From IMG/VR virus record IMGVR_UViG_3300042502_001233, positions 19,125 to 83,124 of that record: a stretch of DNA of 64,000 nt, one strand, 5' to 3'. A model generated the notes under the pieces. That model was not told the DNA's origin, did no database searches, and was given only the letters and a program-made list of their open reading frames with translations. Positions 1,321 to 62,883 of the stretch are shown here, one piece after another; within the stretch, counting starts at the first letter, position 1, and each line of letters begins with the position of its first letter. The position numbers were made by a program, and so were the translations under genes. This DNA is from a virus.

Positions 1321-2397
1321 TTATGACAACCCAACTTTTTCGTTTAATCTTTGGGAGAAAAACTTTTTAGAAATTTCAGAAACATATTTACCAATATCCT
1401 TTATTTCTAACCCTTCATCGCTAATAGTTTGAAGCTCTTCTTTTACTATGTCATTCATAACTGATTTTATATATTTACCAGTATCTTTAACATCGAAAGT
1501 ACCACCATTTAACGTGTCAAATGTTTCATTAAGCATTTGTTCAAGTCTCCAAGCTGGGGTGATTTTTTCAGCTAAGTCTATGCATTTTTGTACCCTCGCA
1601 TCATCAACTGGTTTGAGTGTTTTAACTTTTGAAACACCAGCGTGTTTCTCACCTTTAGATTTGAAAAAGATTCTAACACCATTTTCATCTAAATTTGAAA
1701 AAACAATCCCTTCACCTACAGTATTTGGAAAACCAAAGTGTTTAGCCACTGGACATTCGTCTTCAACACTTAAAGTCATTTCAATCATTTTGTTTTGACT
1801 AAGTTCAGGTCTATTAAAATCAATTTCAATTTCATATGTTTGAAAATCTAACATATTGTAAATTCTTTTTTCGTTATCCCTGAAACCTGAATAATCGACC
1901 CAATAAGCTGGGTTGTTTTTTAATTCTTCTTCATTTTCTACGATAGGTGAAATCTTTATACCATAGATAAACACCGATTTTTCAATATTGGTAATACCAA
2001 CACCTTTTTGAATATTAGAACCAGCCCACTCTGAATAAACACCAATTGTGTTATTATCCAAATCGATACCGTATTTATCAGCTATTTCGTTGATGATTCT
2101 CAACCAAGATTCTTTTGTTGATTCTGCAAAAAAAGCAAAACCAGCATTGTCGGATTGAGGGGTGATGATATTACCTCTACTCTGACACCACATACCTGAT
2201 TTGTTATTAAACAAAACACCAGCTGAAGTACCGTGTAGTTTAACAGTACCAATAAATTTAATAATTGGTTTTGGTTTAGATGGGTCGTAAATAGGCTCAC
2301 CATTTTCATCTAAACCACAGAAGTTATGTTTTCTGTTTACATCACTAACAACCTCTCTAAATTGAGGGGTTGATGGGTATTTTACCATTTTTTTCAT
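1321..2397 (-). CDS. RNA ligase 2 (Rnl2 family, T4 RnlB-like)
   Basis: Nucleotidyltransferase motif I KLHGTS matches the Rnl2 KIHGTN adenylylation lysine motif; length 358 aa. Confidence 0.85.
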   Translation of the reverse strand: MKKMVKYPSTPQFREVVSDVNRKHNFCGLDENGEPIYDPSKPKPIIKFIGTVKLHGTSAGVLFNNKSGMWCQSRGNIITPQSDNAGFAFFAESTKESWLRIINEIADKYGIDLDNNTIGVYSEWAGSNIQKGVGITNIEKSVFIYGIKISPIVENEEELKNNPAYWVDYSGFRDNEKRIYNMLDFQTYEIEIDFNRPELSQNKMIEMTLSVEDECPVAKHFGFPNTVGEGIVFSNLDENGVRIFFKSKGEKHAGVSKVKTLKPVDDARVQKCIDLAEKITPAWRLEQMLNETFDTLNGGTFDVKDTGKYIKSVMNDIVKEELQTISDEGLEIKDIGKYVSEISKKFFSQRLNEKVGLS

Positions 2398-2529: not shown

Positions 2530-3933
2530 TTAATCTACCAATAAGGTTTTAATCATGTTTTCAATTTCTTTTATAGACTCCAAGGAATCACACGTGTCTT
2601 TGTCGTCTCTAAACCCAGCAAAAGAAGGGTATAACAATGAGTAATTACCATCAACATCGTTTGATAACCCGTTACATTTACATTGGATTACAGTACCCAA
2701 CAAATTCTCTTGGTTTTCTGTGATATAAGCCATCATATCTTCTTTAAGACCTTGTGGTCTTGTTTTAACCAACCCATCAGAAGACTCGCAGTTAAAGCTA
2801 GAGATTACATTCTCATTCTTTGTTCCTTTGGTTCCGTAGTTGAACCCTACAATACGTAAATCAACATCCATTTCCAATTTCATTTTGATTTGCCACGTTG
2901 GTTTTCCGTCTTTCCACTCACCATTCCATGCTTTAAGGATTGTACCTTCTTCACCAGCAGCCAATACTTCTTGGAAGTGGGTCATAGCTTGTGCATAATT
3001 GTGAACAATAAGACTTTCAACGATGTTTACATGTGTTGGACCAACTCTTTCGATAGCTCTTTCCAAATATGCTAAACGTTCAGCGTATTTAAGTTTTGAT
3101 GATTTGTTGAAGTATTCATCTACTGTAAGACGGTCCCATACGGTATAACGAATTTTGTCTAGAGCTTCTTCCATCGAACCATGTTTGTCAGTGAATGCTT
3201 TTAATTTTTTCTCATTTTCTTTGTCACTTCTAGAATCTTTTTTACCCAAGATGTCGATAAGTGACGCGATGATACCGTTAGACTCGTATCTAGGGGTATC
3301 AACCATAGTTAACTCTCCGTTAAGAACACAATCTTCAAATGAAGTTAATTCATCTAAGAATTTAGCGCCAGTTAAGATTGTTGGTTCACCTTGACGTGAT
3401 TCCATTTCAACTTCACCACTACGAATAACAGCGTTGCAGTAACGACCATCCATTTTTATTTGTGATATTCCTTTACCACCTTTTTCGAAAATTTTACGAG
3501 CTTTCTTCTCGTCGAAAGATACAGCACCCATATAAGGTGTGTCTTCAATAAGGTCTTTGAATACTTTATTCATAAAAGTAGTTCCCATACCAATCTTACA
3601 GTCTTTCTCAATGATACGTTCAATGATGTAAGCATCTTCTGGTTGTAAATTAGACAAAACATTTACTAATAAAGTTAACGCTTCATTACCCGAAACTTCT
3701 CTATTTGATATACTTTCTAATATATTTAAACCCCAATTCAAATCTCTTGATGGTTCAAATATTTGTCTTGTGTATTCAGGAATTCTTTTAATATAGAATT
3801 TAACTCGTTTAGAGTTTGCCATGTATAGCACTTTCTTTAGTAACTCGTTATCCGAGTACTTTCTAAGGATATCAACCTTAGCGTTGTTACCGCTCTCAGC
3901 AGCAATCTCATCAAAAATTTGTTTGATTGTCAT
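2530..3933 (-). CDS. ATP-dependent DNA ligase
   Basis: Motif I KMDGRYC (KxDGxR), 467 aa, T4/T7 ligase-like layout. Confidence 0.9.
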   Translation of the reverse strand: MTIKQIFDEIAAESGNNAKVDILRKYSDNELLKKVLYMANSKRVKFYIKRIPEYTRQIFEPSRDLNWGLNILESISNREVSGNEALTLLVNVLSNLQPEDAYIIERIIEKDCKIGMGTTFMNKVFKDLIEDTPYMGAVSFDEKKARKIFEKGGKGISQIKMDGRYCNAVIRSGEVEMESRQGEPTILTGAKFLDELTSFEDCVLNGELTMVDTPRYESNGIIASLIDILGKKDSRSDKENEKKLKAFTDKHGSMEEALDKIRYTVWDRLTVDEYFNKSSKLKYAERLAYLERAIERVGPTHVNIVESLIVHNYAQAMTHFQEVLAAGEEGTILKAWNGEWKDGKPTWQIKMKLEMDVDLRIVGFNYGTKGTKNENVISSFNCESSDGLVKTRPQGLKEDMMAYITENQENLLGTVIQCKCNGLSNDVDGNYSLLYPSFAGFRDDKDTCDSLESIKEIENMIKTLLVD

Positions 3934-5450: not shown

Positions 5451-5692
5451 CTAATTTTTAAATAACCACCATCTCTAAAATCCCCATCAACATACTTGGT
5501 TTTAAAACCACGTTTGTTTAACTCTTTGATTGTTAAATCATCTGGATAACATGAAACATCGCAAGAAAATTGATTTCTTTTTACTGACATTTCTATGGAT
5601 TCCAAACAAAGTTTTATTTGTTTTTCAACTTTTTCACCTAAAATTGTTTCTGCTGTTTTTCTAGCCCAATCGGCTGTAATGTTTTCTTTCAT
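5444..5692 (-). CDS. hypothetical protein
   Basis: 82 aa. Confidence 0.35.
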   Translation of the reverse strand: MKENITADWARKTAETILGEKVEKQIKLCLESIEMSVKRNQFSCDVSCYPDDLTIKELNKRGFKTKYVDGDFRDGGYLKISW

Positions 5693-5730
5693 ATATATTA
5701 TTTTAAAGGTTATGCTCTAACCCATAAGGA

Positions 5731-6681
5731 TTAGAGCATTTTGTATAACAATTTGTCATCGTAGTTAACTATGAAGTCTTCTACTGAATCAACTTTACCA
5801 TCAACCAACCCAAAATACAATCCAGTGAATTGTTTTAAGTCGTGTTTTCCACAAACTTCAAAGACAGCCGCAGCGTATCTTTTCTTTTCTTCTTTGGTTA
5901 TGTTTCTTGGTTTACGAGCGCTTAACTCACCCCACATTTCATTTAACTTTACAGTCAATTTGTCGTAGTTCTCTTTAAGTCTTAACAATTCGTCTTTTCT
6001 TTCTGGGAAAGTTGAGGCGAATTCTTCTATCTCGTTAGATTTAACGATAGTTATGATATTGTGTTCAGCAGTTTTACCTTTAAGGTGATGTGCGTGTACG
6101 TAAGCTGGGTTTTTTATCTTGATACGATTGAAATTAGCGTCTACAACAACGTAACCTTCTTCTGACCATGGCATACCCTCAAATGTACGTAACAACGCAC
6201 CCACATCTTTAGCGTTCAAGTCAAATCTTTTAACCAATGGTAATCTTAAAGATACGGATACCATTTCTAAGTCTTTCCAAGACAATTCCACTAAAGTCAC
6301 TCGGTTTCTAACAGTCAACAAAGTTGCTGATGATTCTCCGTGTGGTGCTACAACGATATTGTATGGAGTAGTTAACTCAAAAACGTATACGTGGTCTTTA
6401 TCCAACATACATGGGTTTAACGCGTATTGTTTTGTTACAGTATCCCAAAATAACGAGTTGAATGTTGTTCCCATTTTGTTGTTTACTTCACCTTCACCTT
6501 CGGCTGTACCAGTTGTACCAGCAAACCATTTATTAGCGTGCCAATCCCAATATACTTGGATTAATGAATTATGTACTAGAATACCATTAGCGAAAAAATT
6601 ATTAGTTATTTTGGTTTGAATGTCGTATCTTTTAGATTCACAAGTAATTGATTTGATACTTTTTATTTTAACTATTTTCAT
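5731..6681 (-). CDS. RNA ligase 1 (Rnl1 family) C-terminal part preceded by a split-intein C-segment (IntC, 38 aa)
   Basis: The N-terminus ...YDIQTKITNNFFANGILVHN|S is intein block F/G ending HN then Ser+1. The extein SLIQVYWD aligns with T4 Rnl1 SLVSTYLD after KEDG. Motif IV EGYVVVD and motif V RIKIKNP are present. Confidence 0.8.
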   Translation of the reverse strand: MKIVKIKSIKSITCESKRYDIQTKITNNFFANGILVHNSLIQVYWDWHANKWFAGTTGTAEGEGEVNNKMGTTFNSLFWDTVTKQYALNPCMLDKDHVYVFELTTPYNIVVAPHGESSATLLTVRNRVTLVELSWKDLEMVSVSLRLPLVKRFDLNAKDVGALLRTFEGMPWSEEGYVVVDANFNRIKIKNPAYVHAHHLKGKTAEHNIITIVKSNEIEEFASTFPERKDELLRLKENYDKLTVKLNEMWGELSARKPRNITKEEKKRYAAAVFEVCGKHDLKQFTGLYFGLVDGKVDSVEDFIVNYDDKLLYKML

Positions 6682-7595
6682 TTTAATAAATTTATTTGTT
6701 CAACAATAAATAACTCCAACTCAATATCATTAAGCGATGATATATCCATTTCCCATAATGTGATAACTTTGTATTGATTTTTATATGCAATATCTATTTT
6801 TTTTTCATCTTTCTTCCATATAGTTTCAGCTAAGACATGTTTTTTTGGGAATGGTAATATATCACCAATCTTATATTTTCTTGGGTTAGCGTGCCAAAAA
6901 TCACCATTTACTTCAATAAGAATATTAGTATTGTTAATATAGTAATCAAATACTTTACCTTTTAACGTAAATTGTGGTTCAAATTTAAGTCCGATATCAA
7001 TCAAAATCTTACCAACTCTTTTTTCCAAAATAGAAGAACCGCCACTACATAGTCTTTTTATTTGATTTAGTTTTTGTTCTTCGGTATATGAATACCAACC
7101 ACTAATTCTTTTTACACCATATTTTTTTAACATTAATTCATTAACATTATCTTTAAATTCATCAAGTTTAAAGATATTATCAACACCATAATTTTTGATA
7201 AAAGTTTTTTGTTTTTTTTCTTTTATTGATTCGTTGTTTGAGACATTATCAACACCAAAACGTTTAAAACAAGTTGTTTTATATTTATTTCTAACTGATT
7301 TTTGATTACTTATTTCTTTTGATGATTTCAACTTAATATTATTTAATTTTAATAGTGAAGTTAAACTTTTATTAGGTATTTTATATTCTTTAACCAAACT
7401 AAAAACAGAACCGTCATTAATATATTTTTTAATAATTTCACCTATTAACACATCAGTTAAACCAAACCTTGTTTTTAAAACAAACAATTCTAGTTCAGTT
7501 TCATTTTTAAATTCACTATTGTGACTATTTTTAACGTGTAATTTAAACATTTTACTATCAAATTCACACTCACATTTTATACATTTAATCTTCAT
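6678..7595 (-). CDS. freestanding homing endonuclease, Vsr-like/EDxHD-type catalytic domain with N-terminal Zn finger and NUMOD-like repeats
   Basis: C-terminal NILIEVNGDFWHANP...K resembles the Vsr FVDGCFWHGH core. It lies between the two halves of the Rnl1 gene. Confidence 0.75.
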   Translation of the reverse strand: MKIKCIKCECEFDSKMFKLHVKNSHNSEFKNETELELFVLKTRFGLTDVLIGEIIKKYINDGSVFSLVKEYKIPNKSLTSLLKLNNIKLKSSKEISNQKSVRNKYKTTCFKRFGVDNVSNNESIKEKKQKTFIKNYGVDNIFKLDEFKDNVNELMLKKYGVKRISGWYSYTEEQKLNQIKRLCSGGSSILEKRVGKILIDIGLKFEPQFTLKGKVFDYYINNTNILIEVNGDFWHANPRKYKIGDILPFPKKHVLAETIWKKDEKKIDIAYKNQYKVITLWEMDISSLNDIELELFIVEQINLLK

Positions 7596-7605
7596 AACTT
7601 TTTTT

Positions 7606-7619
7606 TATTATAAATATCT
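7606..7619 (-). promoter_or_regulatory. class-2 motif (minus strand GATATTTATAATAA) immediately upstream of the endonuclease ATG
   Basis: Plus-strand ttattataaatatc; the same motif is found before most endonuclease genes. Confidence 0.35.
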
Positions 7620-7652
7620 AGAAATATTAGAAAAGTTAGATTAGTATCAAAT

Positions 7653-8255
7653 TTATTTAGTAATTAATAAAAATTCATCTTCTTCTGTTAATTCGCTGAC
7701 CATTCTATAACAATTTAGTTTAGGTAACCAAACTTTATGATTTCCAGTTAATTTAACGGTAGTCCCATCTTCTAATTCAATTTCAAACCAATCGTTAATA
7801 TTCTTCTTAACTGAATAATCAATAATCTCGTCATACATTGGTTCATTACTTTCTAAATCTAATGATAAAACTTTACCAGAATACTTAGTTTCACATATCT
7901 CACGAATCGTCATTTCACCATCTTCAGTTATAAGAACAGTGTCCTCATGACAGCAACCATCAAGTTTCTCTAACACATTGGCTGTGTTCCAATCTATTTT
8001 AGCAGCGTTTCCTTCTTCAGCGTTGAAGAATTTACGGAACGCCAACGACATAACTTTCCACGTACCTTTTTCAAGAATAAGACCACGACAATCTTGCATC
8101 TCTGGCAACCCCATAAGAGTTGGTGACGATAATTGGTCATATTTCAAAAGAATCTTGTTATCGTATTCTCTTGATTTAAGTTTAAAGTCATTTATAGCTT
8201 TATCTAGTCCATATTTTTTTATATATGTAACGATAGCTAATTCATTATTTTTCAT
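7653..8255 (-). CDS. RNA ligase 1 N-terminal part (motif I KLDG) fused to a split-intein N-segment (IntN, about 99 aa)
   Basis: LPEMQDCRGLILE...FRKFFNAEEGN...LEKLDG aligns to T4 Rnl1 LPDALECRGIMFE...MEKFFNLNENP...LTKEDG. It is followed directly by CCHEDTVLITEDGEMTIREI, which is intein block A. Confidence 0.8.
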   Translation of the reverse strand: MKNNELAIVTYIKKYGLDKAINDFKLKSREYDNKILLKYDQLSSPTLMGLPEMQDCRGLILEKGTWKVMSLAFRKFFNAEEGNAAKIDWNTANVLEKLDGCCHEDTVLITEDGEMTIREICETKYSGKVLSLDLESNEPMYDEIIDYSVKKNINDWFEIELEDGTTVKLTGNHKVWLPKLNCYRMVSELTEEDEFLLITK

Positions 8256-8273
8256 TTTTTTTTTATTTTTAAA

Positions 8274-9119
8274 TTAAAAAATATACCTGATAGTTTCTAA
8301 AGGAAAATACTTAGAATATAAATCTTTAAACTCTAATATTAAACCATGTTTGAAACGTCTTTCATATCTGATGTTATCAGCAGCATACTGAGAATCTTTA
8401 GCTTCTTGTAACTCAGGAATACTAAGTAGATTATTTACTTCTAAAGTATTTCTTTTAAGTTGAATATTATTGTAAGTTAAAAAGATACATTCTGATTTAA
8501 ACTCAATACCTTTCAACATTTCAAACAACTCTTTATAATCATCTAACCAATTTGGATAATATACAATAGGACTAAAGTTAATATGAACTTCCATTTTTTC
8601 TTGAAGAATAGGAATCATTGCAATTCTATCAGCGATACTATCCGTTTTAGGTTCTAAAACATCTGATATTTTTTGAGGTATTAAACTAATTCTTATTCTA
8701 TGCTTATTTGCAGCTAAATTATAGTCTTGTATATTAAACTTTGTTGGGTATTTGGTTGCAAAAGTAGTTTTTACTTTGTCATGTGTGTTGAAAAAATCAA
8801 ATACTTGTTGCCACTCATAGTGTTTACCATGTAAAGGCACATCAGTACTACACCCTATATCTATACAATAGTAAGTGTCATCAACTTGATTTGACACTTT
8901 AGGCCATGGCTTGGATTCAACCCATTTATTAACGGAAGCTAAGATTTGCTCTGTGTTTTCGTTGATATAAACCTTGTCAGCATTATATCTACCTACATAA
9001 CAATATGACTTCATACACCCACCAAGACAACCATATATAAAATTAGGTGAAATAGCGTCACTACTTCTATCATTATCTCTGGTTATTAAGGTTTTAGTTT
9101 TTTGTTTCTTAATTTCCAT
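8274..9119 (-). CDS. hypothetical protein with Cys cluster (CLGGCMKSYC)
   Basis: 281 aa; no confident family assignment. Confidence 0.4.
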   Translation of the reverse strand: MEIKKQKTKTLITRDNDRSSDAISPNFIYGCLGGCMKSYCYVGRYNADKVYINENTEQILASVNKWVESKPWPKVSNQVDDTYYCIDIGCSTDVPLHGKHYEWQQVFDFFNTHDKVKTTFATKYPTKFNIQDYNLAANKHRIRISLIPQKISDVLEPKTDSIADRIAMIPILQEKMEVHINFSPIVYYPNWLDDYKELFEMLKGIEFKSECIFLTYNNIQLKRNTLEVNNLLSIPELQEAKDSQYAADNIRYERRFKHGLILEFKDLYSKYFPLETIRYIF

Positions 9120-9138
9120 TTTAAATATTAAAGTTTAA

Positions 9139-9498
9139 TTATTGTTCGTCGTCTTCTTCGTTATCATCGTTATCATCGAAGCCATCTTCTCTCATGTCTT
9201 CAATTGCTCTGATGATATCATCATAAGTTCCGCTGTCTGCTCTCTGTTTCATATCCCTAAGGAAAGATGAATCCGATTCATCCAAATTATCAAATAATTT
9301 TTTAGCAGAGAACATGGAAACTAGTTCGCTAAATTTGTTTACGTCATTTTCATCGAAAGCTAAACCCCCTAAGAAAATTAACATTGTTCCTAATTGTGAT
9401 ATGGTTACATCACCAGTTTCAGAACCTTCGTGCATCAGAGCTTGACCCATTTTCATGAATTTAGTCGTCAGCTCTAATCGTCTTTCTACGTTTGCCAT
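9139..9498 (-). CDS. small protein with poly-acidic C-terminal tail
   Basis: C-terminus DGFDDNDDNEEDDEQ. Confidence 0.4.
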   Translation of the reverse strand: MANVERRLELTTKFMKMGQALMHEGSETGDVTISQLGTMLIFLGGLAFDENDVNKFSELVSMFSAKKLFDNLDESDSSFLRDMKQRADSGTYDDIIRAIEDMREDGFDDNDDNEEDDEQ

Positions 9499-14915: not shown

Positions 14916-15003
14916 TGGAGGAGAATATGGGATTCGAACCCATGGGCCGAACTAACGGCCACGGTTTAGCAAACCGCTCCAATAACCACTCTGGCAATTC
15001 TCC
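14916..15003 (-). tRNA. tRNA-Ser(GCU), type II, CCA encoded
   Basis: Hand fold: acceptor GGAGAAT/ATTCTCC, anticodon loop TTGCTAA, long variable arm GGCCGTTAGTTCGGCCC, T-loop TTCGAAT. Confidence 0.7.
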
Positions 15004-15040
15004 AAATTTGTACCCCTACAGGGACTCGAACCCCGATTCT
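15004..15040 (-). pseudogene. tRNA 3'-half fragment (variable region + T-arm + acceptor 3' strand) abutting the HNH gene
   Basis: GGCTAGAATCGGGGTTCGAGTCCCTGTAGGGGTACA with no matching 5' half upstream; the HNH ORF 15045..15647 occupies that position. Confidence 0.4.
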
Positions 15041-15044
15041 AGCC

Positions 15045-15647
15045 TTAATTTTTGTAATTTTTTAAATATCGGTCTTTTCTAGCTGAGTTTTTATTTTTAG
15101 ATTTATATGTATCTAATTGTGAATCACAATTATGACATATTAACCTTAAATTATTTCTCATATTATTAGACGCATTTCCGTTAATATGGTCTAAAATAAA
15201 ATTCATAGGTTTACCATTCCAAACATTTTTAATATTACATATATCACATTCACAATTTTGTTCTATTAATATATGTTTTTTCAATGGTGCTAAATCTTTA
15301 TTAGCGTTACAAAAATCTTCTTGATTACTCAAATAATTTTTATAGTATTCTTCAGTTTTATGTTTTACCCAACATTCTTTATTACAATATAATTGTTTAT
15401 CATAAGAAGTGTTAACTTCTTTACCACAACACAAACAATTTATTTTCTTACCCTTACCAGTGTTAACTGGTTTGAAATTTTCACCAAATTTTGCTCTGAT
15501 TGGTAATTCAATTCCTAATCGTTTACATACTTTTTTTATATATGTATCAGAAACACCGTATTTTTCACCAATTTTTCTATAAGAAATTTTTTGAACAAAA
15601 ATTAAATCTTCTAGGTCTACTTTTTTATATTTTTCATTATAATCCAT
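15045..15647 (-). CDS. HNH homing endonuclease with N-terminal HTH
   Basis: LDHINGN...NLRLICHNCDSQ HNH motif; inside the tRNA cluster. Confidence 0.75.
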   Translation of the reverse strand: MDYNEKYKKVDLEDLIFVQKISYRKIGEKYGVSDTYIKKVCKRLGIELPIRAKFGENFKPVNTGKGKKINCLCCGKEVNTSYDKQLYCNKECWVKHKTEEYYKNYLSNQEDFCNANKDLAPLKKHILIEQNCECDICNIKNVWNGKPMNFILDHINGNASNNMRNNLRLICHNCDSQLDTYKSKNKNSARKDRYLKNYKN

Positions 15648-15725
15648 AATATTTTTTTATTATAAATATAATGAATTCGAACCAAAAGTCAACTATTTTT
15701 AAATTTAATTTTATGTTCAGATTTG

Positions 15726-15798
15726 TGACCTTATCGGGATTCGAACCCAAACGACAAATTTAGAAGATTTGTATGCTAATCCGTTACATCATAAGGCC
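15726..15798 (-). tRNA. tRNA-Arg(UCU)
   Basis: Anticodon stem CAAAT/ATTTG, loop CTTCTAA; T-loop TTCGAAT. Confidence 0.6.
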
Positions 15799-15816
15799 AG
15801 TTATTATTTAATGTTG

Positions 15817-15890
15817 TGGCTCCGACAGGGCTCGAACCTGTGACCCACAGATTAGAAATCTGTTGCTCTGTCCATCTGAGCTACGGAGCC
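15817..15890 (-). tRNA. tRNA-Arg(UCU), second copy with different sequence
   Basis: GGCTCCGTAGCTCAGATGG...; anticodon stem ACAGA/TCTGT, loop TTTCTAA. Confidence 0.6.
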
Positions 15891-15897
15891 AATTTTT

Positions 15898-15974
15898 TGG
15901 TGACCACGGTAGGATTCGAACCTACAACCTCCGCAGTCGTAATGCGGTGCGCTATCCAGTTGCGCCACGTGGCC
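15898..15974 (-). tRNA. tRNA-Arg(ACG), CCA encoded
   Basis: Anticodon stem CCGCA/TGCGG, loop TTACGAC. Confidence 0.7.
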
Positions 15975-15980
15975 AGTATT

Positions 15981-16053
15981 TGGTACCGAGTATGGGAGTC
16001 GAACCCATGTATTCATCTTTATGAGGGATGAACGTTTTCCTATAACCCTCGGC
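15981..16053 (-). tRNA. tRNA with anticodon CAU (Met or Ile-lysidine), atypical D-arm
   Basis: Loop CTCATAA, T-arm ATGGG/TTCGACT/CCCAT, CCA encoded. Confidence 0.5.
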
Positions 16054-16059
16054 ATTTTG

Positions 16060-16133
16060 CGGCCTCGACAGGATTCGAACCTGTAACCCTTGAGTTAACA
16101 ACTCACCGCTCTAACCATTATAGCTACGAGGCC
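16060..16133 (-). tRNA. tRNA-Asn(GUU)
   Basis: Loop TTGTTAA; G27.A43 mismatch. Confidence 0.55.
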
Positions 16134-16140
16134 TTTTTTT

Positions 16141-16216
16141 TGGCGGCCTAGGTAGGATTCGAACCTACACGCCTCACCTTAACAGGGTGCCGCTCTACCG
16201 TTGGAGCTACTAGGCC
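16141..16216 (-). tRNA. tRNA-Asn(GUU), second copy, CCA encoded
   Basis: Loop CTGTTAA identical to the canonical Asn loop. Confidence 0.65.
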
Positions 16217-16322
16217 AATTTTATATTTTTATCAATACACCGAGTACCACAATTACGGTGCGCCTCTGGCCTACTCGCCAGCAATGCTGTTTTTACCCGT
16301 GGTTACACCATTTGATAGGGTG

Positions 16323-16396
16323 TGGTCCCCTCGGGACTCGAACCCGAAACCGTCGCGTTATGAGCGCGCTGCGCTAACCAATTGCGCCAGAGGACC
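16323..16396 (-). tRNA. tRNA-Met/Ile2 (CAU)
   Basis: GGTCCTCTGGCGCAATTGGTTAGCGC...; loop CTCATAA. Confidence 0.6.
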
Positions 16397-16666
16397 TTAT
16401 TTACGTTTTTCAACAAGATAGTTAATGTAATCTTCGTAGCCATCATCATCATCATCATCATCATCATAATCATCATCTTCTGGTTCAAAGTCTTCATCTA
16501 ACATTTTATCCAGAACTTCAAAAGCTATTTTCATTACTTCGTTTTCTTTACCCTTTAATTGTGGGTTAGGAAGCAAAATGAACAATCCAACTATGGCTTC
16601 TACCAATCCTTTTTCATTTTCACTATATTGTCTTTTCATAGTTGTGACGGTGGGGCTCGAACCCAC
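16397..16666 (-). CDS. small acidic protein inside the tRNA cluster (likely start MKRQY at about 16639)
   Basis: C-terminal DDDYDDDDDDDDGYEDY. Confidence 0.35.
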   Translation of the reverse strand: MGSSPTVTTMKRQYSENEKGLVEAIVGLFILLPNPQLKGKENEVMKIAFEVLDKMLDEDFEPEDDDYDDDDDDDDGYEDYINYLVEKRK

Positions 16667-16725
16667 ATTGTGTTATAAACACCCAGCGTATCAGGCTGGT
16701 GACTAAACCATTCATCCACATCACA
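16642..16725 (-). tRNA. tRNA-like gene with anticodon GAU but a 16-nt hairpin variable arm (non-canonical)
   Basis: Same anticodon loop CTGATAC as the canonical Ile tRNA next to it, plus an extra hairpin GTGTT-TAT-AACAC. Confidence 0.4.
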
Positions 16726-16732
16726 GTTTTCG

Positions 16733-16806
16733 TGGGTAACACGGGAGTCGAACCCATAACCTCTCGCGTATCAGGCGAGTGCTCTAACCAGTTGAGCTAG
16801 CTACCC
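16733..16806 (-). tRNA. tRNA-Ile(GAU)
   Basis: GGGTAGCTAGCTCAACTGGTTAGAGC...; stem CTCGC/GCGAG, loop CTGATAC. Confidence 0.7.
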
Positions 16807-16814
16807 ATTATTTG

Positions 16815-16887
16815 CACGGACCAAGAGAATCGAACTCTTTCCATTCGAGGTTTTGGAGACCTGATGCATGCCATTATGCTGGCCCGT
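16815..16887 (-). tRNA. tRNA-Trp(CCA)
   Basis: Loop CTCCAAA; T-arm AAGAG/TTCGATT/CTCTT. Confidence 0.6.
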
Positions 16888-16894
16888 ATTTAAT

Positions 16895-16989
16895 TTATCA
16901 CCAAAGGATTCGAACCTTTACACCCTTCTCGGGTTACCGTTTTCACTACAGCAGTCAGTACCCAGTTTACTCTTTTGACTCACGTGATA
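16895..16989 (-). ncRNA. tRNA-like element (about 95 nt) with T-arm and acceptor-like ends; anticodon arm unresolved
   Basis: T-loop AAAGG/TTCGAAT/CCTTT and a 6-bp acceptor TATCAC/GTGATA; possibly a type II tRNA. Confidence 0.3.
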
Positions 16990-16997
16990 AATTTAGG

Positions 16998-17083
16998 GTG
17001 AAAAGACGGGACTCGAACCCGCAAGGACATTTCTGTCATCTGGCTCACAACCAGACTCGCTACCGTTACGTACTACAATCACC
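16998..17083 (-). pseudogene. tRNA-His-like (GUG) with extra variable hairpin and mismatched acceptor; probable pseudo-tRNA
   Basis: Loop TTGTGAG, hairpin GACA-GAAA-TGTC, three acceptor mismatches. Confidence 0.35.
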
Positions 17084-17092
17084 ATGTATTTC

Positions 17093-17725
17093 TTATACTC
17101 GACCTAATCTCCAATTATCTGGAATTAAATCATCTTTTTTAATCTTTTTATTTTCACTACCATTTGTTACCCATCGACTACCAAATTGTGAATTTGTTTC
17201 ACCAACACCAGTACCTTTTTTTACTTTAGACATTAATTGTTTAGATTCATGACTATGGGTTTCACCTTCCCAATTTTTAATCCAATTTTTATCTCTAGTA
17301 CCAGTTAAATATTCTAGTGTTCTAGCTGTTGATATTTTATTACTTTTCTTTTCTACCCATTCTGGGTCTTGTCTTAAAAGCTTTTGTTTTTCGTTTGATT
17401 TAATCGCATTCAATTTTTGTTGTTCCGAGCTAAACCCACCAGTACCACCTTCTCTAAGATTCATACACATAGGGTTTTCCACCAACTCTTTAGTAACAAT
17501 TTCAATCTCTCTAAGAACCATTTCTTCTCTTGTAGGTAAAAATTCAAGTATTTCTTTTGTATGGTTTTCCACACCATGTTTTCTAATTGAATACCTAAGT
17601 CTTTTACCACTCCCCATATAACCATCTTCCAGGTTATATGCACTATGCATTCCTACATAATATCTTCCCGTTACATTACATGTTGTTTTATATATGTAAT
17701 GTATGTTTCTTTGTTTTCTTGCCAT
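17093..17725 (-). CDS. GIY-YIG homing endonuclease
   Basis: IHYIYKTTCNVTGRYYVGMHS...GYMGSG; paralog of 38029..38688. Confidence 0.8.
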   Translation of the reverse strand: MARKQRNIHYIYKTTCNVTGRYYVGMHSAYNLEDGYMGSGKRLRYSIRKHGVENHTKEILEFLPTREEMVLREIEIVTKELVENPMCMNLREGGTGGFSSEQQKLNAIKSNEKQKLLRQDPEWVEKKSNKISTARTLEYLTGTRDKNWIKNWEGETHSHESKQLMSKVKKGTGVGETNSQFGSRWVTNGSENKKIKKDDLIPDNWRLGRV

Positions 17726-17784
17726 TTCTCTTTCTTTCTAAATAAATATCTTAAGAAAGAGAAAAGTACAAAAAAGTTTAAGAG

Positions 17785-17859
17785 GGTGGTATATCGGGTT
17801 CGAACCGATGACCCTCGACACCACAAGCCGATGCTCTAACCAACTGAGCTAATACCACC
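17785..17859 (-). tRNA. tRNA-His(GUG) with G-1:C73
   Basis: 8-bp acceptor GGTGGTAT/ATACCACC, loop TTGTGGT. Confidence 0.75.
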
Positions 17860-20483: not shown

Positions 20484-21677
20484 TCAAGATAATCCTAATA
20501 ATTTTTTAAATTTATCAGTTTCCATTTTTTGAATGGCTTTTCCAAGTTCAGGTCCAGGACCTATATTGAATTTTTCCATCGCTTCTGGACCAGTAACTGT
20601 TAGTCTGAACTCTTCAAAAGCATCTAGCAATTGTGATGATATACCTTCGTTGCTACCAAAATTTCTAATTTGGTCGTTGGATACTCCAGAAGTTTGTTGT
20701 ACTTTCTTTAATAAGTAAGCAGTGTCAACATCTAACTTCAATAATGAAATTAAAAACACAATGGCTTTAATCTCATCCGATGAGTATTTTAAATCATTTA
20801 GTTTTTTTCTCAATACATCAACGTTGTTACCTTTTAACAACCTAGCTAACAATACTATGTAATCATCAGCTTTGTAATCAGAGTTTCTTCTAAATACTCT
20901 TGTGTCTACATCCAAATTAGGAAATATCCAATCAAACAATTTGTATTTGTCTAACATCAACAAGTAAGCGTCGGTTGATTTAGCTGATATAAGCCCTTTG
21001 ATAAATTCATCTCTAATACGTTCACCAGAAATACCTTCAAGACTAGCATCTTGTTGTAACGCAGCATCTACGTCAGGGTCCAACCCACTACCAAATCTAC
21101 CAGCCAGTCTTATACCTCTAAGTTTACGTAATTTATCTTCACTAAACCTGTCTTCTGATTTACCAACAGTGCGTATAACAGAATTTTTTAAATCAACGAT
21201 ACCACCTACTAAATCTACTACTTCTTGGGTGTCCATATCATAAAACAAAGCATTTACACTAAAATCTCTTCTTAAAACATCAGATTTTATATCTGAAAAT
21301 TCAACGTAATCTGGTCGTCTACCATCACTACTACCGATATCTTTACGCATAGTAGCTATCTCATATTCACCATCTGTAGTTATAACATTAACCACACCAA
21401 ACGCTTTACCTGTTTCCAATATATTTGTAACAAATTCTTGATTTTTTAATAAATTTATTACGTTATCTGGTGTGGCATTTGTTACTAAATCAAAATCTTT
21501 TGGTGTTACATTAAGTAACATATCACGAACTGACCCACCAATAGGGTATAATTCAAAACCATTTTTTTTAAAAATTGAATGAATTTTATTAACATTTGTC
21601 GGAAATTTAAAATAAATTTTTAATCTCTTCTCTGATGTTAAATTTTTTTTTAAAATTTCCTTTATAATTGTTTTCAT
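20484..21677 (-). CDS. tRNA nucleotidyltransferase (CCA-adding enzyme)
   Basis: Head-domain motif LYPIGGSVRDMLL...DFDL (GGxVRD / DxD). Confidence 0.8.
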   Translation of the reverse strand: MKTIIKEILKKNLTSEKRLKIYFKFPTNVNKIHSIFKKNGFELYPIGGSVRDMLLNVTPKDFDLVTNATPDNVINLLKNQEFVTNILETGKAFGVVNVITTDGEYEIATMRKDIGSSDGRRPDYVEFSDIKSDVLRRDFSVNALFYDMDTQEVVDLVGGIVDLKNSVIRTVGKSEDRFSEDKLRKLRGIRLAGRFGSGLDPDVDAALQQDASLEGISGERIRDEFIKGLISAKSTDAYLLMLDKYKLFDWIFPNLDVDTRVFRRNSDYKADDYIVLLARLLKGNNVDVLRKKLNDLKYSSDEIKAIVFLISLLKLDVDTAYLLKKVQQTSGVSNDQIRNFGSNEGISSQLLDAFEEFRLTVTGPEAMEKFNIGPGPELGKAIQKMETDKFKKLLGLS

Positions 21678-22549
21678 ATTTTATTATCATTTAAAATGTT
21701 TAATAACATTTTTTTAACAACATCAAATTTATTTTTAATATCAAATTCCCAAAATCTAATTATTTTAATATTATTGTCTTTTAACATTATTTCTTTTCTT
21801 TTATCTCTATCTATATTTTTAAGTTGAATGGAATCTAGGGTTTTATCTTTATAGACCAATGGGTTTGCATGCCAATAATCACCATCACATTCCACCACTA
21901 AGTTATACTTAGGTAAATAAAAATCAACTAAAAAATTATTTATTCTATGATTTTTAATAAAATCTATTGATTCATCAATTAATAAATCTTTAATTTTTAA
22001 TTCAATAATAGTTGGTTTTCTATTTTGAATCATCGCTTTATTTAAACGATTAATTATTATTTGTTTTTCTTCATCTGTTTTTTTAGACCAATTTAACTTA
22101 GCCTTTTCCGATAATTTCTCAGAATATTTTAAAATTCTTTCATCATTAAATTTAGTTTTCCCATTATTCCAAGCTGTTGAACCATACATAGGGTTATTTT
22201 CGCCACTTAAGCTTGGTAAGGTACCAGATTTAAACATATCAATTCTAGTTTTAGCTAACTTCTCAGATTTTATTCTAACTATTTGTGAATTTTCTTTAGT
22301 TTTACCTTTTAACGGTGAAACTTTACCAAACATTGCATTGTTTTCACCACTATTTAATCTAGATTTTATTTGATATGTTTGTTCTTTAGAGTGTTTCAAT
22401 TTTAATTTACCTATTTTAACACTAATCGCTTCTAATGTTCTATTATATTTCGAATTAAACAATGGATATATCTCACTTACAGAAAAACCGTTATTTTCAT
22501 ATAATTCTCTTAAATACCTAACTTCTTCTTCAGACCAATATTTTCTCAT
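21674..22549 (-). CDS. freestanding homing endonuclease: NUMOD3 repeats + Vsr-like/EDxHD catalytic domain
   Basis: GENNAMFGK and GENNPMYGS NUMOD3 motifs; C-terminal VVECDGDYWHANP. Confidence 0.75.
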   Translation of the reverse strand: MRKYWSEEEVRYLRELYENNGFSVSEIYPLFNSKYNRTLEAISVKIGKLKLKHSKEQTYQIKSRLNSGENNAMFGKVSPLKGKTKENSQIVRIKSEKLAKTRIDMFKSGTLPSLSGENNPMYGSTAWNNGKTKFNDERILKYSEKLSEKAKLNWSKKTDEEKQIIINRLNKAMIQNRKPTIIELKIKDLLIDESIDFIKNHRINNFLVDFYLPKYNLVVECDGDYWHANPLVYKDKTLDSIQLKNIDRDKRKEIMLKDNNIKIIRFWEFDIKNKFDVVKKMLLNILNDNKI

Positions 22550-25166: not shown

Positions 25167-25226
25167 AATTTCTAATTTTTTGTTTATTATAAATATACCA
25201 CACTTTTAAAAAATGTAAAGTGTTTG

Positions 25227-25299
25227 TAGTTCTAATCGGACTCGAACCGATATCTCTCCGTTTTAGAGGCGGGTGTATTCACGTTAATACTATAGAACC
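25227..25299 (-). tRNA. candidate amber-suppressor tRNA, anticodon CUA
   Basis: The 73-nt hand fold fits canonical numbering. Acceptor is GGTTCTA/TAGAACT, D-stem GTAT/ATAC, anticodon loop CTCTAAA (34-36 = CUA), and T-arm ATCGG/TTCGAGT/CCGAT. The anticodon stem has C.A mismatches at both ends. Confidence 0.45.
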
Positions 25300-30368: not shown

Positions 30369-30530
30369 ATGGGAAGAAAAGCAAAAATACAAGAAGAAAA
30401 GAAAGATAAAATTAGTATCTCTATCTCAAAAGAAAACTACGAAGCAATGGCTTCAGAAGGTATCAATAAGTCACAACTAATCAATTGGTTGTTAGAACAA
30501 CACTTTAATTTATTAAATTATGGAAAGTAA
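30369..30530 (+). CDS. small RHH-like protein (cassette ORF B)
   Basis: ISISISKENYEAMASEGINKSQLINWLLEQHF, a CopG-like pattern; a paralog is at 35297. Confidence 0.4.
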   Translation: MGRKAKIQEEKKDKISISISKENYEAMASEGINKSQLINWLLEQHFNLLNYGK

Positions 30531-31185
30531 AATTTGTAATACGTGTAATACTGAATTACCATTAGATAATTTTTCTAAAGACAATGCAACTAAAGATAAA
30601 TTAAAAAATACATGTAAAAAATGTTCCTCAATTAAAAACGCTGAATGGAGAAAAAATAATAAAGAAAAAAGAAAACAATACCATAAAGAATATCATAATA
30701 AAAATAAAGAAAAATTAAAAGAGTATAATAAAAAGATTAACAATGAATTTAAAAAAACACATGGTATATCTAGACATACTTTATGGGATAGAGAGAATAA
30801 AGATAGACGTAAAGAATTATTGAAAATTAGACTAAAAAATCCAGTAGAGGCTTTAAAGTATAAATTAAGGAGTTCTTTAAATGCAATTTTTAGATATAAC
30901 GGTTATACTAAAAAACATAAATCACACGATATTATAGGTTGTTCATATGAAGAATTTAAACAACACCTTGAATCTCAATTTGAACCTTGGATGAATTGGG
31001 ATAATCGTGGGTTATATAATGGTGAGTTTAACTATGGTTGGGATATTGACCATATGGTACCATTATCAACGGCAACAACTGAAGAAGAGTTAATTAATTT
31101 ATGTCACTACACAAACACACAACCATTATGTAGTAAAGTTAATAGGGATATAAAGAAAAATAAAGTTGATTTTTATCCAACATAA
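30520..31185 (+). CDS. HNH homing endonuclease with N-terminal Zn finger and basic KEY-repeat region
   Basis: GWDIDHMVPL...NTQPLCSKVNRDIKKNK. Confidence 0.8.
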   Translation: MESKICNTCNTELPLDNFSKDNATKDKLKNTCKKCSSIKNAEWRKNNKEKRKQYHKEYHNKNKEKLKEYNKKINNEFKKTHGISRHTLWDRENKDRRKELLKIRLKNPVEALKYKLRSSLNAIFRYNGYTKKHKSHDIIGCSYEEFKQHLESQFEPWMNWDNRGLYNGEFNYGWDIDHMVPLSTATTEEELINLCHYTNTQPLCSKVNRDIKKNKVDFYPT

Positions 31186-60451: not shown

Positions 60452-62758
60452 TTAATTAAACGTTATTTTAGAAATATTATTTTCTTTAACTACAGTAACC
60501 ACGTTTGTTGACCAATCTTTAACGATATCGTTGTGTGTGATAAAGAAGACGATATCATACATGTCTTTTACTTTATCAAACAACAATTTTAGTTTTTCAA
60601 GATTCTCTGGAGCCACTTTACCCAACACTTCATCAAACGTGATGAAATTAGGCATAGGTAGTGTAGATAGTTTCCCTAACACAGCTCTTAAAGCTAGACT
60701 GGCAGCAGTTTTTTCTAACCCAGACCCAGATTTTAACAATTTAGAAACACCATCTTTAACTAATAAAAACTGAACATCGTTCTTATCATTAATAAATATC
60801 TCGATTTCAAAATCTACAACATCTTCTAATAATCTTTGAACTTCTGAATTGATAATTGGGAGAACTGAGCGCAATACCAATTTACTAATACCTTTCTTAC
60901 CAACCAATTCAATGTATATCTTGAATATTTTATCAACTTCCTCTTCTTTTTTTATAGTTTCAATAAGTTTTGTTTTTATACCAATATGTTCCGCGTTGAT
61001 TCTTAATTCACTTTGAACTCGTTCGAGACTTCTGATTGTTTCGTCTTTTTTATATTCTTTAACTGAAATATCTGTAATAATTTTACTAACAGCTATTTCT
61101 ACACTACGATTTAACTCTATCGCTTCTAAGTTTAATTTGTATTTTTTCAAATCATTCTTTTTAGCAACAATTTGGTTTCTTAATCCACCCATTTCAACTT
61201 CTAATCTGTCTATATCCAATTCCTTTTTACCAATTGAGTCAGCAATTTTTTTGGTTTCATTTAAACCTTCAAGTTCTTCAACACTTTTTAAAAGTTTATC
61301 AGTAAGTTCTTTTACTTCTTTGTTTATTTTTTCAATCTCAACCTCATGTTTAGCTATATGTGCTGAATTATCAACATCATCTAATTTTCTGTTACATGAT
61401 TGACAAATACCACCAGCAATTAAATCGGATACAACTTTTTTAAGTCTTTTTGATTCGGCTTCTTTAACTGCTTTATCCATATTTAATTTACTACCTAATT
61501 TTGTCAACTCATGATGTCTATCTTCATCAAATTCAATTTTACCTATCTCTTCGATTTCACTTTTTATAGTTGTTACTTTACCACTTAACTCAACACCTTT
61601 ATCAATGAGTGTTTTAATGTCATCTTCAAGTCTTTGGGGGTTTAATTCTGAAATTGTTACGTCAATTTTCTCTTTGCTGTTTAAAAGAGCATCTTTTTCA
61701 GTTTTTAACTCTTCCAAAGATTGTTTAGTAGTTTCTAAAGTTTCGTTTAAATCACTTTCTAGTTCATTATAGTTCACAATTTTTTCATTGTGGTCATCAA
61801 TCTCTTGACCCAAAGTTATAACGTCGTATTCGTTAGATTTCTTCTTTTTAGAAAATTCATTGTACATCGTTCTAGCGATTGCTTCTTTCATTTCAAGAAC
61901 TTCTAAACCAATAAGTCTAGTAAGTATCTTACCAGATTCAGTTGTTGTCAATCCAATCAATTCATCCAAGTTTTTTTCAGTAGCCAAAACCAACATTTCA
62001 AAATCTTTTTCGGTTCCGATGCTTTCTTTTAACTTTTTAGTTGTTTGTTTGGCATCTTCTTCATTTAATTCCTCTTCTTCACCATCTGGTTGAATTTTAT
62101 AGTAGTTTACTTTGTTTACAACAGTCCAACCACCACCTTTTTTAGAAGTACGTCTCATTTTTCTTTCAATGATAGTCTCTTCACCTTCAATTTCAATCAT
62201 TCCACGAACAACCAACTCATTCTTTTCAGAGTATGTGTTGAATATTTGCTCGTTGGTATCTGTTTTGGTTGTACTACCATGAAGCAAAAACTTAATAGCG
62301 TCGATTGTAAGCGTTGTATTATGTGATACGATTCCATTGGTATAATATTGATGGACTTCGGCTACTTGAATATCGTATAATGTATCTTTTTCTTTTAATA
62401 ATTCAATAGTAGCAACAGCACTATCACCATCGTTTGTTTGAATCATCTCACCAACTTTTATCTCTTTAAGGACAACAAACTCATCATCCGTTTTCTTTAA
62501 ACGATGATAATCAGCACCTTCAACAAACATTCCGTTTTGAAGTTCACATCTATAAACATCAGCATTTTCTTCTGTAATTCCACACCACTCAATGTCTTTA
62601 TAACCATATGGTGTATCAACTTTAAATCCTAGGTCTCCGTATTTTTGGTAAATATTATTTAATTCACCAATTGTAATTTCTTTATTCTCCATCTTTTTTA
62701 TATAAATTAATTTCTTCAATTTCAAATTCAATACCACGAAGTTTATCTTTAGATTCAA
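60452..62758 (-). CDS. SbcC/Rad50-like recombination ATPase (T4 gp46-like) preceded in-frame by an intein C-segment (blocks B, F, G; about 125-147 aa)
   Basis: N-terminal VYRCELQNGMFVEGADYHRL (block B-like) ... DTLYDIQVAEVHQYYTNGIVSHN|TTLTIDAIKFLLHG, where the extein starts at the [ST]T of the P-loop. The C-terminus has the signature motif, Walker B FITFDEV and H-loop FFITHN. Confidence 0.7.
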   Translation of the reverse strand: MNLKINFVVLNLKLKKLIYIKKMENKEITIGELNNIYQKYGDLGFKVDTPYGYKDIEWCGITEENADVYRCELQNGMFVEGADYHRLKKTDDEFVVLKEIKVGEMIQTNDGDSAVATIELLKEKDTLYDIQVAEVHQYYTNGIVSHNTTLTIDAIKFLLHGSTTKTDTNEQIFNTYSEKNELVVRGMIEIEGEETIIERKMRRTSKKGGGWTVVNKVNYYKIQPDGEEEELNEEDAKQTTKKLKESIGTEKDFEMLVLATEKNLDELIGLTTTESGKILTRLIGLEVLEMKEAIARTMYNEFSKKKKSNEYDVITLGQEIDDHNEKIVNYNELESDLNETLETTKQSLEELKTEKDALLNSKEKIDVTISELNPQRLEDDIKTLIDKGVELSGKVTTIKSEIEEIGKIEFDEDRHHELTKLGSKLNMDKAVKEAESKRLKKVVSDLIAGGICQSCNRKLDDVDNSAHIAKHEVEIEKINKEVKELTDKLLKSVEELEGLNETKKIADSIGKKELDIDRLEVEMGGLRNQIVAKKNDLKKYKLNLEAIELNRSVEIAVSKIITDISVKEYKKDETIRSLERVQSELRINAEHIGIKTKLIETIKKEEEVDKIFKIYIELVGKKGISKLVLRSVLPIINSEVQRLLEDVVDFEIEIFINDKNDVQFLLVKDGVSKLLKSGSGLEKTAASLALRAVLGKLSTLPMPNFITFDEVLGKVAPENLEKLKLLFDKVKDMYDIVFFITHNDIVKDWSTNVVTVVKENNISKITFN

Positions 62759-62883
62759 TACGGTTATTAATTAAATCAAACACAGTTTCAATTTGTAAAA
62801 AAGGGCTATCGCCACTAATTATTACTAGGTATTGTATTCTTCTATATGATTTTTGTGTATATTTATAAACACCTTTTTTAATT

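Follow-up and report, generated by a model that had tools for sequence, protein, structure and literature searches.

A fractured RNA ligase gene in a phage contig, with a predicted split intein and homing endonuclease at ligase motif I

How can a phage make an RNA ligase from a gene whose reading breaks off directly behind the catalytic motif I and resumes more than one kilobase (kb) further on in another open reading frame (ORF)? This question is raised by a locus on the minus strand (5731..8255) of a 64,000-nucleotide (nt) stretch of the IMG/VR virus record IMGVR_UViG_3300042502_001233 (positions 19,125 to 83,124), the whole of which is hereafter called the window. A previous sequence-only reading had placed three consecutive minus-strand ORFs here, at coordinates that proved exact, and had taken them for an Rnl1-type RNA ligase gene (rnlA) split by the two halves of an intein (IntN and IntC) with a free-standing homing endonuclease gene (HEG) between them. 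Our analysis favours the same interpretation, a fractured rnlA with a split intein and HEG cassette inserted right after motif I, to which we assign a probability of roughly 85%.

Fractured genes, e.g., gp41-1, NrdJ-1, IMPDH-1 and NrdA-2, were described by Dassa, London, Stoddard and Pietrokovski (2009, NAR 37:2560; PMC2677866), who reported 26 loci with eight host types (gp41 helicase, IMPDH, DnaE, NrdA, NrdJ, DNA ligase, terminase and one unknown), found Vsr-like or GIY-YIG HEGs as well as a HEG-less allele (gp41-7), and proposed a gene-breaking model. The locus in the window matches their definition, as had been suggested. Its layout is of an already known type; the RNA ligase as host is not reported before. 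A literature search for inteins in Rnl1/Rnl2-type ligases found none, nor the phrase “RNA ligase intein” (InBase lay outside this search), and intein surveys in the searchable literature name RtcB-type ligases and no Rnl1/Rnl2-type hosts.

The locus and its ligase host

The elements of the locus are listed with the evidence on which each was placed (lengths in amino acids, aa).

7653..8255, minus: ORF A, RnlA N-extein plus IntN, 200 aa (ORF list and sequence)
7956..8255, minus: Rnl1 N-extein, residues 1-100 (phrog_562, 2c5u alignment, intein-less alleles)
7956..7967, minus: motif I, K97-L-D-G100, the last codons before the intein (sequence)
7653..7955, minus: IntN, 100 aa (CCHEDT...EFLLITK), and its TAA stop (TIGR01445, conservation)
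7596..7652, minus: spacer of 57 nt between the IntN stop and the HEG (sequence)
6678..7595, minus: free-standing HEG, 305 aa (PF24308, phrog_3339, AlphaFold2 model)
6681..7040, minus: EDxHD/Vsr-like nuclease domain of the HEG, residues ~186-305 (profile, Foldseek)
5731..6681, minus: ORF C, IntC plus RnlA C-extein, 316 aa (ORF list and sequence)
6568..6681, minus: IntC, 38 aa (MKIVKIKSIKSITCESKRYDIQTKITNNFFANGILVHN), blocks F and G, terminal His-Asn (TIGR01443)
5731..6567, minus: Rnl1 C-extein, residues 101-378, and its TAA stop (phrog_562, PF09511 on the spliced product, 2c5u)
6208..6507, minus: divergent tract, candidate co-conversion tract (identity against the empty allele L012, protein-level ancestry)

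The three ORFs are adjacent and co-directional, the layout that marks fractured genes of the Dassa type. ORF A reads MKNN...NVLEKLDG|CCHEDTVLITEDGEMTIREI...EFLLITK (the vertical bar marks the junction) and ends with a TAA exactly 100 residues past Cys1; the proposed run of an Rnl1 N-terminus through motif I into intein block A was correct, with 100 instead of about 99 intein residues. ORF C contains, as predicted, a 38-aa IntC ending in FFANGILVHN, Ser+1 and the motifs EGYVVVD and IKIKNP; it continues with LIQVYWDW... and comprises 277 ligase residues after Ser+1. The insertion does lie at motif I, but directly after K97-L-D-G100 and three residues past the lysine, and not one residue after the motif as first read.

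Under our reading, three proteins would be made from this locus, namely RnlA(1-100)-IntN of 200 aa, the endonuclease of 305 aa and IntC-RnlA(101-378) of 316 aa. The acidic IntN and the basic IntC would associate and fold into a HINT domain, an N-S acyl shift at Cys1 would precede transfer of the N-extein to Ser+1, and cyclisation of the terminal Asn of IntC, completed by an O-N shift, would restore KLDG-SLIQ in an intact 378-aa ligase. The endonuclease in turn would cut the intein-less rnlA of co-infecting relatives, and repair would copy the complete cassette (IntN, HEG and IntC) along with part of the flanking extein. Trans-splicing, ligase activity, the activity and target of the endonuclease, the transcript structure and homing are what we infer here from DNA sequence.

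A contiguous intein-containing gene broken up by an assembly or sequencing artefact would remove the question altogether. This explanation is refuted, and the split favoured by the sequence-only reading held: contigs assembled independently from four lake samples (JGI 3300034108 and 3300034018, ENA ERZ27272088 and Logan/SRA SRR27335567), three covering the whole 2.8 kb and the fourth the first 1.5 kb, encode the exact ORF A protein and are 99.96-100% identical to the window region, so that the stop codons are real and sequencing error is excluded. Although the ATG of the HEG shares its reading frame with ORF A, five in-frame stops lie between IntN and HEG (the TAA and four more: TGA, TAA, TAA, TAA), and the start of IntC overlaps the stop of the HEG (ATGA) in a different frame. 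Dozens of diverged homologs share the layout, and the N-half ends at one common position in at least 84 homologous clusters. Stop-codon recoding through a CUA-anticodon suppressor tRNA was rejected; this tRNA is irrelevant to the rnlA locus because none of the stops is TAG. A search of GenBank phages for near-identical DNA gave no match, so the genome in the window is not an annotated isolate.

Both ORF A and ORF C carry parts of the same ligase. The profile phrog_562 (RNA ligase / tail-fibre attachment catalyst) matches residues 29-102 of the N-half at profile positions 30-108 and residues 39-304 of the C-half at positions 107-357 (E 9e-24), so that the two matches abut. When spliced in silico, the 378-aa ligase scores 51.7 bits with PF09511 (RNA_lig_T4_1; cut-off 28.3) in a single match that spans the junction (spliced residues 56-256 on profile positions 2-227), a cut-off that the fragments alone fail. 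The peptide across the predicted junction, ...NVLEKLDGSLIQVYWDWH..., contains KLDG-SLIQ, and phmmer aligns the spliced product with T4 Rnl1 (2c5u) over residues 49-265, pairing kldgsl with kedgsl, fel with fef, egyv with egyv and ikik with fkik, which bears out the earlier alignment of KLDG|SLIQVY to KEDG-SLVSTY. Motifs III (FELTTP), IV (EGYVVV(D)) and V (IKIKNP) all follow Ser+1 in the C-extein. T4 RNA ligase 1 (RnlA, gp63; 2c5u, 5tt6) shares motifs I (K-x-D-G-S), III, IV (EGYV) and V (K-I-K) with the protein, whereas the T4 gene is uninterrupted. The TIGR02308 equivalog model was not passed (59.3 bits versus a cut-off of 242.25), which makes the protein a distant Rnl1-family member and not a T4 RnlA equivalog. 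Compared with intein-less alleles, the N-extein is identical to the protein P0253 at 99 of 100 residues and to the locus L012 at 98.3% of nucleotides.

Intein halves, endonuclease and expression signals

Intein profiles matched both proposed halves above curated cut-offs, in agreement with the sequence-only reading: TIGR01445 (intein_Nterm) scored 31.3 bits (cut-off 24.5) on residues 101-175 of ORF A and TIGR01443 (intein_Cterm) 26.3 bits (cut-off 15.6) on residues 19-39 of ORF C. With PF14890 (Intein_splicing), the separate halves stayed under the cut-off of 35.8 (29.0 and 25.5 bits), and IntN and IntC fused in silico reached 55.3 bits. IntN carries Cys1, block A and the block B residues T70-G-N-H73, of which C1, T70 and H73 are 100% conserved across 71 IntN homologs, while His-Asn|Ser at the end of IntC (...ILVHN|S in the window) occurs in every intein-bearing C-half examined. 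The net charge is -13 for IntN (median -12 across the 71 homologs) and +5 for IntC; such complementarity of an acidic IntN and a basic IntC is typical of natural split inteins, e.g., DnaE and gp41-1.

Among solved inteins, the nearest is NrdJ-1 (8ubs, E 6.6e-9), to which the IntC of the window aligns, followed by the DnaX, DnaB, DnaE and gp41-1 inteins; homology to these structures indirectly backs a HINT fold of the fused intein. NrdJ-1 is among the fastest known trans-splicing inteins. P0398, another Rnl1-family protein, carries a contiguous mini-intein with which the fused intein is collinear (47% identity, E 2e-46); the split point coincides with a two-residue gap in that alignment (“FLLRE-GG-MKLKSIRK”), in the canonical endonuclease-insertion loop. 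Taken together, the element is probably a naturally split class-1 intein that would splice in trans. Pairs with unsaturated dS gave ω values (Nei-Gojobori) of 0.05-0.23 for IntN, 0.09-0.29 for IntC, 0.07-0.21 for the exteins and 0.19-0.49 for the HEG (0.19 against the locus L009), and by these ratios both intein halves are under purifying selection.

In the split Aeromonas phage NrdA, the halves reportedly reassemble non-covalently, and the intein halves of the window, too, could serve to dimerise without splicing, since their strong charge complementarity would allow tight association without chemistry. We consider this very improbable. A 138-aa HINT domain would be left wedged between G100 and S101, i.e., in motif I by the adenylylated lysine, and C1, T70, H73, the terminal His-Asn and Ser+1 are strictly conserved although association alone needs none of them. 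Moreover, Ser+1 tracks the presence of the intein, the close empty alleles having mostly Thr.

The middle ORF has an N-terminal helical DNA-binding region that matches PF24308 (DUF7487; 45.5 bits, cut-off 27), and as a whole it matches phrog_3339 (homing endonuclease, E 5e-16). A profile of 39 HEG sequences retrieved I-Bth0305I (3r3p, E 1.8e-5) and Vsr (1cw0, E 4e-4) from the PDB. The AlphaFold2 model (mean confidence, pLDDT, 88.4) had 3r3p_A as its top Foldseek match (E 2e-4, probability 1.00, target-normalised TM score 0.74), followed by the Vsr structures 1cw0 and 1vsr. D217, E228, G231, D232 and H235 are invariant in the 39 sequences and D263 is conserved in at least 90% of them (motif ILIEVNGDFWHANP). 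The earlier assignment as a Vsr-like/EDxHD endonuclease therefore stood at the level of profile and fold, while curated Vsr models remained under threshold (PF03852, 16 bits versus 27; TIGR00632, 20.7 versus 97.85), as is expected for a distant homing relative as opposed to a Vsr repair enzyme. Profile, invariant residues and predicted fold together identify the protein as an EDxHD/Vsr-like homing endonuclease, which would presumably cleave DNA.

The EDxHD family, to which I-Bth0305I (PDB 3r3p) belongs, was defined by Taylor et al. (2011; PMC3239194). The window HEG resembles this enzyme in its C-terminal Vsr-like nuclease with acidic and His residues and in its N-terminal helical DNA-binding region, but differs from it in being free-standing between split-intein halves and not encoded inside a recA group I intron, and in having only about 20% identity in the nuclease domain. 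Its N-terminal region is DUF7487, possibly an equivalent of NUMOD2. A paralog of 291 aa (26% identity over 252 aa; VVECDGDYWHANP) is encoded at 21674..22549 (minus), free-standing and with an ATGA overlap, between a 408-aa gene and a CCA-adding-enzyme-like gene, with no flanking intein pieces. A further ORF at 30520..31185 (plus) resembles the DUF7487 repeat region (30% over 73 aa, E 0.002) and may encode another HEG-related DNA-binding protein.

How the three ORFs would be expressed can be addressed from their junctions. The 57-nt spacer contains a sigma70-like match (TTGATA-N16-AATATT, 7650..7623), and it is conserved in the window, L009 and L071 as TTGAYA, 16-18 nt and a TAnnAT-like element, which suggests a HEG-specific promoter. 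A scan of 5500..9300 for sigma70 promoters and terminators gave nothing above shuffled sequences and no terminator between the three ORFs, so that separate transcripts are unsupported either way. At the other junction, the overlap of HEG stop and IntC start (ATGA/GTGA) is conserved in L009, with similar overlaps in L032 and L074, which suggests that IntC-RnlA could be translationally coupled to the HEG. A TAAATTTG match overlaps the IntN stop. The Bacteroidetes -7 motif TAnnTTTG was not enriched window-wide, but 2.8-fold in the 100 nt upstream of genes; since neither L009 nor L071 conserves the copy at the IntN stop, that copy was not relied on.

Allele series, distribution and mobility

A scan of viral contigs with the C-half gave 66 related loci. 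In 59 of these, the N- and C-extein matches abut to the nucleotide at G100|S/T101 within an uninterrupted rnlA of 374-378 aa, which defines the insert as window 6568..7955. The empty site of the L012 type reads ...GATGGT|ACCCTTATACAAG... (in wider form GAGAAACTTGATGGT|ACCCTTATACAAGTATATTGGG). The +1 residue of close empty alleles is Thr in 102 of 106 clusters and in 39 of the 59 loci, and Ser+1 is tightly associated with intein presence. Among 120 close C-half homologs (longest no more than 396 aa), 106 were intein-less and six were split C-halves; overall, the cassette is carried by about 5-8% of related rnlA alleles.

All intein-bearing alleles among the scanned loci are split, and they come in several forms. 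L009 has a long HEG like that of the window and carries frameshifts in N-extein and HEG; L075 has a HEG of 369 aa; L032 and L033 encode a 131-aa HEG with the nuclease domain only. In L028 and L042 the HEG is absent and a spacer of only 105-150 nt is left, and L071, on a 315-kb contig, retains a decayed HEG remnant (ILIEVNGDFWYANP) in which the catalytic His is replaced by Tyr. These three HEG-less or decayed alleles keep both intein halves open. The frameshifted parts of L009 (4475-5019 and 5059-6004) belong to the allele most similar to the window's cassette, and the frameshifts could reflect genuine decay or else errors in the reads of an older metagenome. L028 (1940-2020) and L071 (4900-4985) have in common a G+C-rich element (ATTTGTAGGRCYGCTGTGAGYTAGTRGGRAGTCTA...) in AT-rich surroundings just upstream of the IntC start; possible identities are a promoter, a structured RNA and a small mobile element. 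L071 in addition has an IS605 OrfB/TnpB (Cas12f-like) gene (1471-2667) about 1.3 kb upstream of the fractured rnlA and a NUMOD3-containing ORF directly 5' of the N-half.

In a collection of 5.8 billion proteins, at least 84 N-half clusters (71 found by the pattern KxDG|C and 13 by eye) end 98-110 aa past Cys1. About 19 close HEG clusters match N-half clusters in the exact size of their longest contig and probably sit on the same contigs. No contiguous version of the window allele occurred among 120 + 120 close homologs, and an exhaustive search retrieved P0398 as the only, and distant, contiguous relative of the same intein lineage.

The lineage extends beyond orthologous ligases. In L074, it interrupts motif I (EKLDG|SSTTF; IntN 50-55% identical; IntC MKIKSIKKIENTSKLYDIE...FFANGILVHN|S) of a non-orthologous ligase that combines a PHA02142 OB fold at its N-terminus with PF09414, a DUF7487 HEG again lying between the halves; the lineage is also found in the kinase-Rnl1 fusions P0363 and P0381. 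In these fusions, a Pnk-like kinase (AAA_33) is joined to an Rnl1 N-half with the same split IntN, and the junction reads KLDGT|CLH..., the insertion point seemingly being one residue off. An unrelated classical intein (CFSY...LLVHN) occupies the identical KLDG|S site in other Rnl1 homologs, with a nested in-frame LAGLIDADG domain (82.5 bits) in P0440 (743 aa) and a mini form of the same intein in P0471 (523 aa); in contrast to the element of the window, it is contiguous. Inteins thus recurrently target motif I of these ligases.

These distributions allow a wider interpretation, for and against which we see about equal odds: one NrdJ-1-related split lineage could have spread via motif I across non-orthologous RNA ligases (Rnl1/PF09511, OB-fold and PF09414 DraRnl-like ligases, kinase-Rnl1 fusions), could have stayed obligately split even after decay or loss of the HEG, as seen across almost every genome sampled (at least 84 clusters), and could have homed recently in the phage of the window, leaving a co-conversion scar. 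If this were true, it would document extein switching by a fractured-gene cassette, amount to a time series of the homing cycle in nature, and give protein engineering a large and so far untapped stock of Cys1/Ser+1 split inteins. A different IntN/Vsr-like HEG/IntC cassette lies about 2.5 kb downstream of an intein-less rnlA in L027 (3009-4271) and L029 (6402-7664); it has another host gene and shares 28%, 28% and 53% identity with the window's IntN, HEG and IntC, respectively.

As a signal of mobility, divergence is lower in the cassette than in its host gene: dS between the window and L009 is 0.48 for IntN, 0.33 for the HEG and 0.76 for IntC compared with 1.0 for the C-extein, and dN between the window and L028 is 0.08 for IntN compared with 0.26-0.28 for the exteins. 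Against the empty L012, the window shows about 100% identity for 1.26 kb, which ends at the last base of the Gly100 codon. Behind the cassette, five of the first nine nucleotides differ (TCATTAATC versus ACCCTTATA), and C-extein nt 61-360 are only 70-83% identical, with 95-100% on both sides. At the protein level, residues 1-100 go with P0253 (99/100) and residues 101-220 with P0241 (117/120), i.e., with two different empty alleles. A switch of ancestry exactly at the insertion site fits double-strand-break repair with co-conversion, as would be expected after recent homing.

Several results weigh against our reading. A search of the intein-bearing alleles compared gave no donor for the divergent tract, the best matches being empty alleles at about 85%; the mosaicism may therefore reflect ordinary phage recombination, and co-conversion stays a conjecture. 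No hairpin of the Dassa type was found 5' of the HEG above shuffled controls (minimum free energy -8 kcal/mol, z 0.82), in contrast to the Dassa loci, where such a hairpin is present. Single-sequence AlphaFold of the fused intein, run with no alignment, gave an uninformative model (pLDDT 32.5), and dS was saturated in many of the comparisons considered for ω. Finally, a second RNA ligase (PF09414, phrog_548; 1321..2397, minus) and an ATP-dependent DNA ligase (2530..3933, minus; 53% identical to that of Cellulophaga phage phi4:1) lie just downstream of rnlA, which makes three polynucleotide ligases within 7 kb; with a second RNA ligase in the genome, the Rnl1 function may not be indispensable.

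The first of these points would also suit a working split intein whose HEG no longer homes, being inactive or serving another role, with ordinary recombination behind the mosaicism. As the HEG-less and decayed alleles show, the split gene is kept even where the HEG is lost, and the ω of the HEG is higher than that of the other parts. We nevertheless judge this unlikely. The predicted active site is intact, with all five residues invariant, the HEG of the window is full-length with a confidently predicted fold, and about 19 HEG clusters probably share contigs with N-half clusters. The dS of HEG and IntN against L009 falls below that of the extein, and the ancestry breakpoint lies within a few nucleotides of the insertion site.

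Alternatively, the locus could be a decaying pseudogene, in which the HEG broke an intein-containing rnlA, a functional ligase is no longer made and the phage uses its other RNA ligase. The PF09414 RNA ligase and the DNA ligase only 3-4 kb away, the frameshifts of the related allele L009 and the low share of alleles with the cassette would be in line with this idea. It is, however, hard to reconcile with purifying selection on exteins and intein halves (ω 0.05-0.29), with the intactness of every ligase motif and splicing residue, with at least 84 diverged clusters that keep an open N-half with the same end point, and with the open intein halves of L028, L042 and L071, and we rate it as quite improbable. 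The preferred reading remains a fractured rnlA whose ligase would be restored by trans-splicing.

Known systems and genome context

Compared with the loci of Dassa et al., the window shows the same order of N-host-IntN, free-standing HEG with its own start and stop, and IntC-C-host, adjacent and co-directional in phage-like DNA; coding frames often overlap there as well, and one of their HEG families is Vsr-like. Different from them, the host is an RNA ligase and the insertion lies at nucleotidyl-transferase motif I, and instead of short read assemblies, contigs of up to 362 kb are at hand here together with empty, full-length, short-HEG, decayed and HEG-less alleles. With the Ssp and Npu DnaE inteins, the element shares the naturally split class-1 organisation of about 100 + 36-38 aa, the break in the canonical endonuclease-insertion loop and the acidic IntN/basic IntC, although the sequence similarity is weak (E about 1e-3). 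The DnaE halves, however, lie far apart and have no HEG, whereas those of the window are 1 kb apart with a HEG between them, and the +1 residue of the window is Ser, not Cys.

With this locus, an RNA-repair enzyme and the covalent-catalysis motif KxDG join a short list of fractured-gene hosts and sites, which so far holds mostly proteins of DNA replication and nucleotide metabolism. What the finding contributes beyond this is its rich allele series and the cross-family occurrence of the intein. Empty alleles, alleles with a full, short or decayed HEG, HEG-less alleles, a contiguous mini-intein relative and an unrelated LAGLIDADG intein at the identical site form a series that is unusually complete for testing the gene-breaking model, and dozens of diverged NrdJ-1-related variants with a Ser+1 junction are possible orthogonal tools for protein ligation. 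Caution is advisable in annotation: automated pipelines call the HEG a “G:T mismatch repair endonuclease” and the pieces of the locus “hypothetical protein”.

Contigs that encode the exact ORF A protein reach up to 362 kb, which makes this a jumbo phage. The window encodes 16 tRNA genes, a CCA-adding enzyme, the ATP-dependent DNA ligase, the PF09414 RNA ligase and an SbcC-like gene, a repertoire that, together with T4 biology, is consistent with a role of Rnl1 in tRNA or RNA repair. The DNA ligase is 53% identical to proteins of Cellulophaga (Flavobacteriia) phages and at most 33% to all others; with the upstream enrichment of TAnnTTTG, this gives modest support to a Bacteroidota host. The tRNA genes cluster at 14916..17858, and a CUA-anticodon tRNA (labelled tRNA-Pyl by ARAGORN) is located at 25226..25299 (minus). 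As an amber suppressor, it could indicate TAG recoding in a jumbo phage.

A second fractured gene in the window encodes an SbcC/gp46-like ATPase split in its Walker-A loop (GGK|TT; window 60452..63900, minus; L078, 3346-7449). Its N-terminal part lies beyond position 64000, and an IntN of only 29 aa (CVRADTKVNIQFNKNEIIKKLGFLPDELK, ending at a stop) was read in L078, outside the window. Natural split inteins with such a short IntN are rare, one example being AceL-TerL. Within the window follow a Vsr-like HEG of 338 aa (62884..63900), a 71-aa ORF and a 126-aa IntC ending in GIVSHN|TTLTIDAIKF, behind which the C-terminal part of the ATPase matches phrog_77 (E 2.7e-40, profile positions 334-953).

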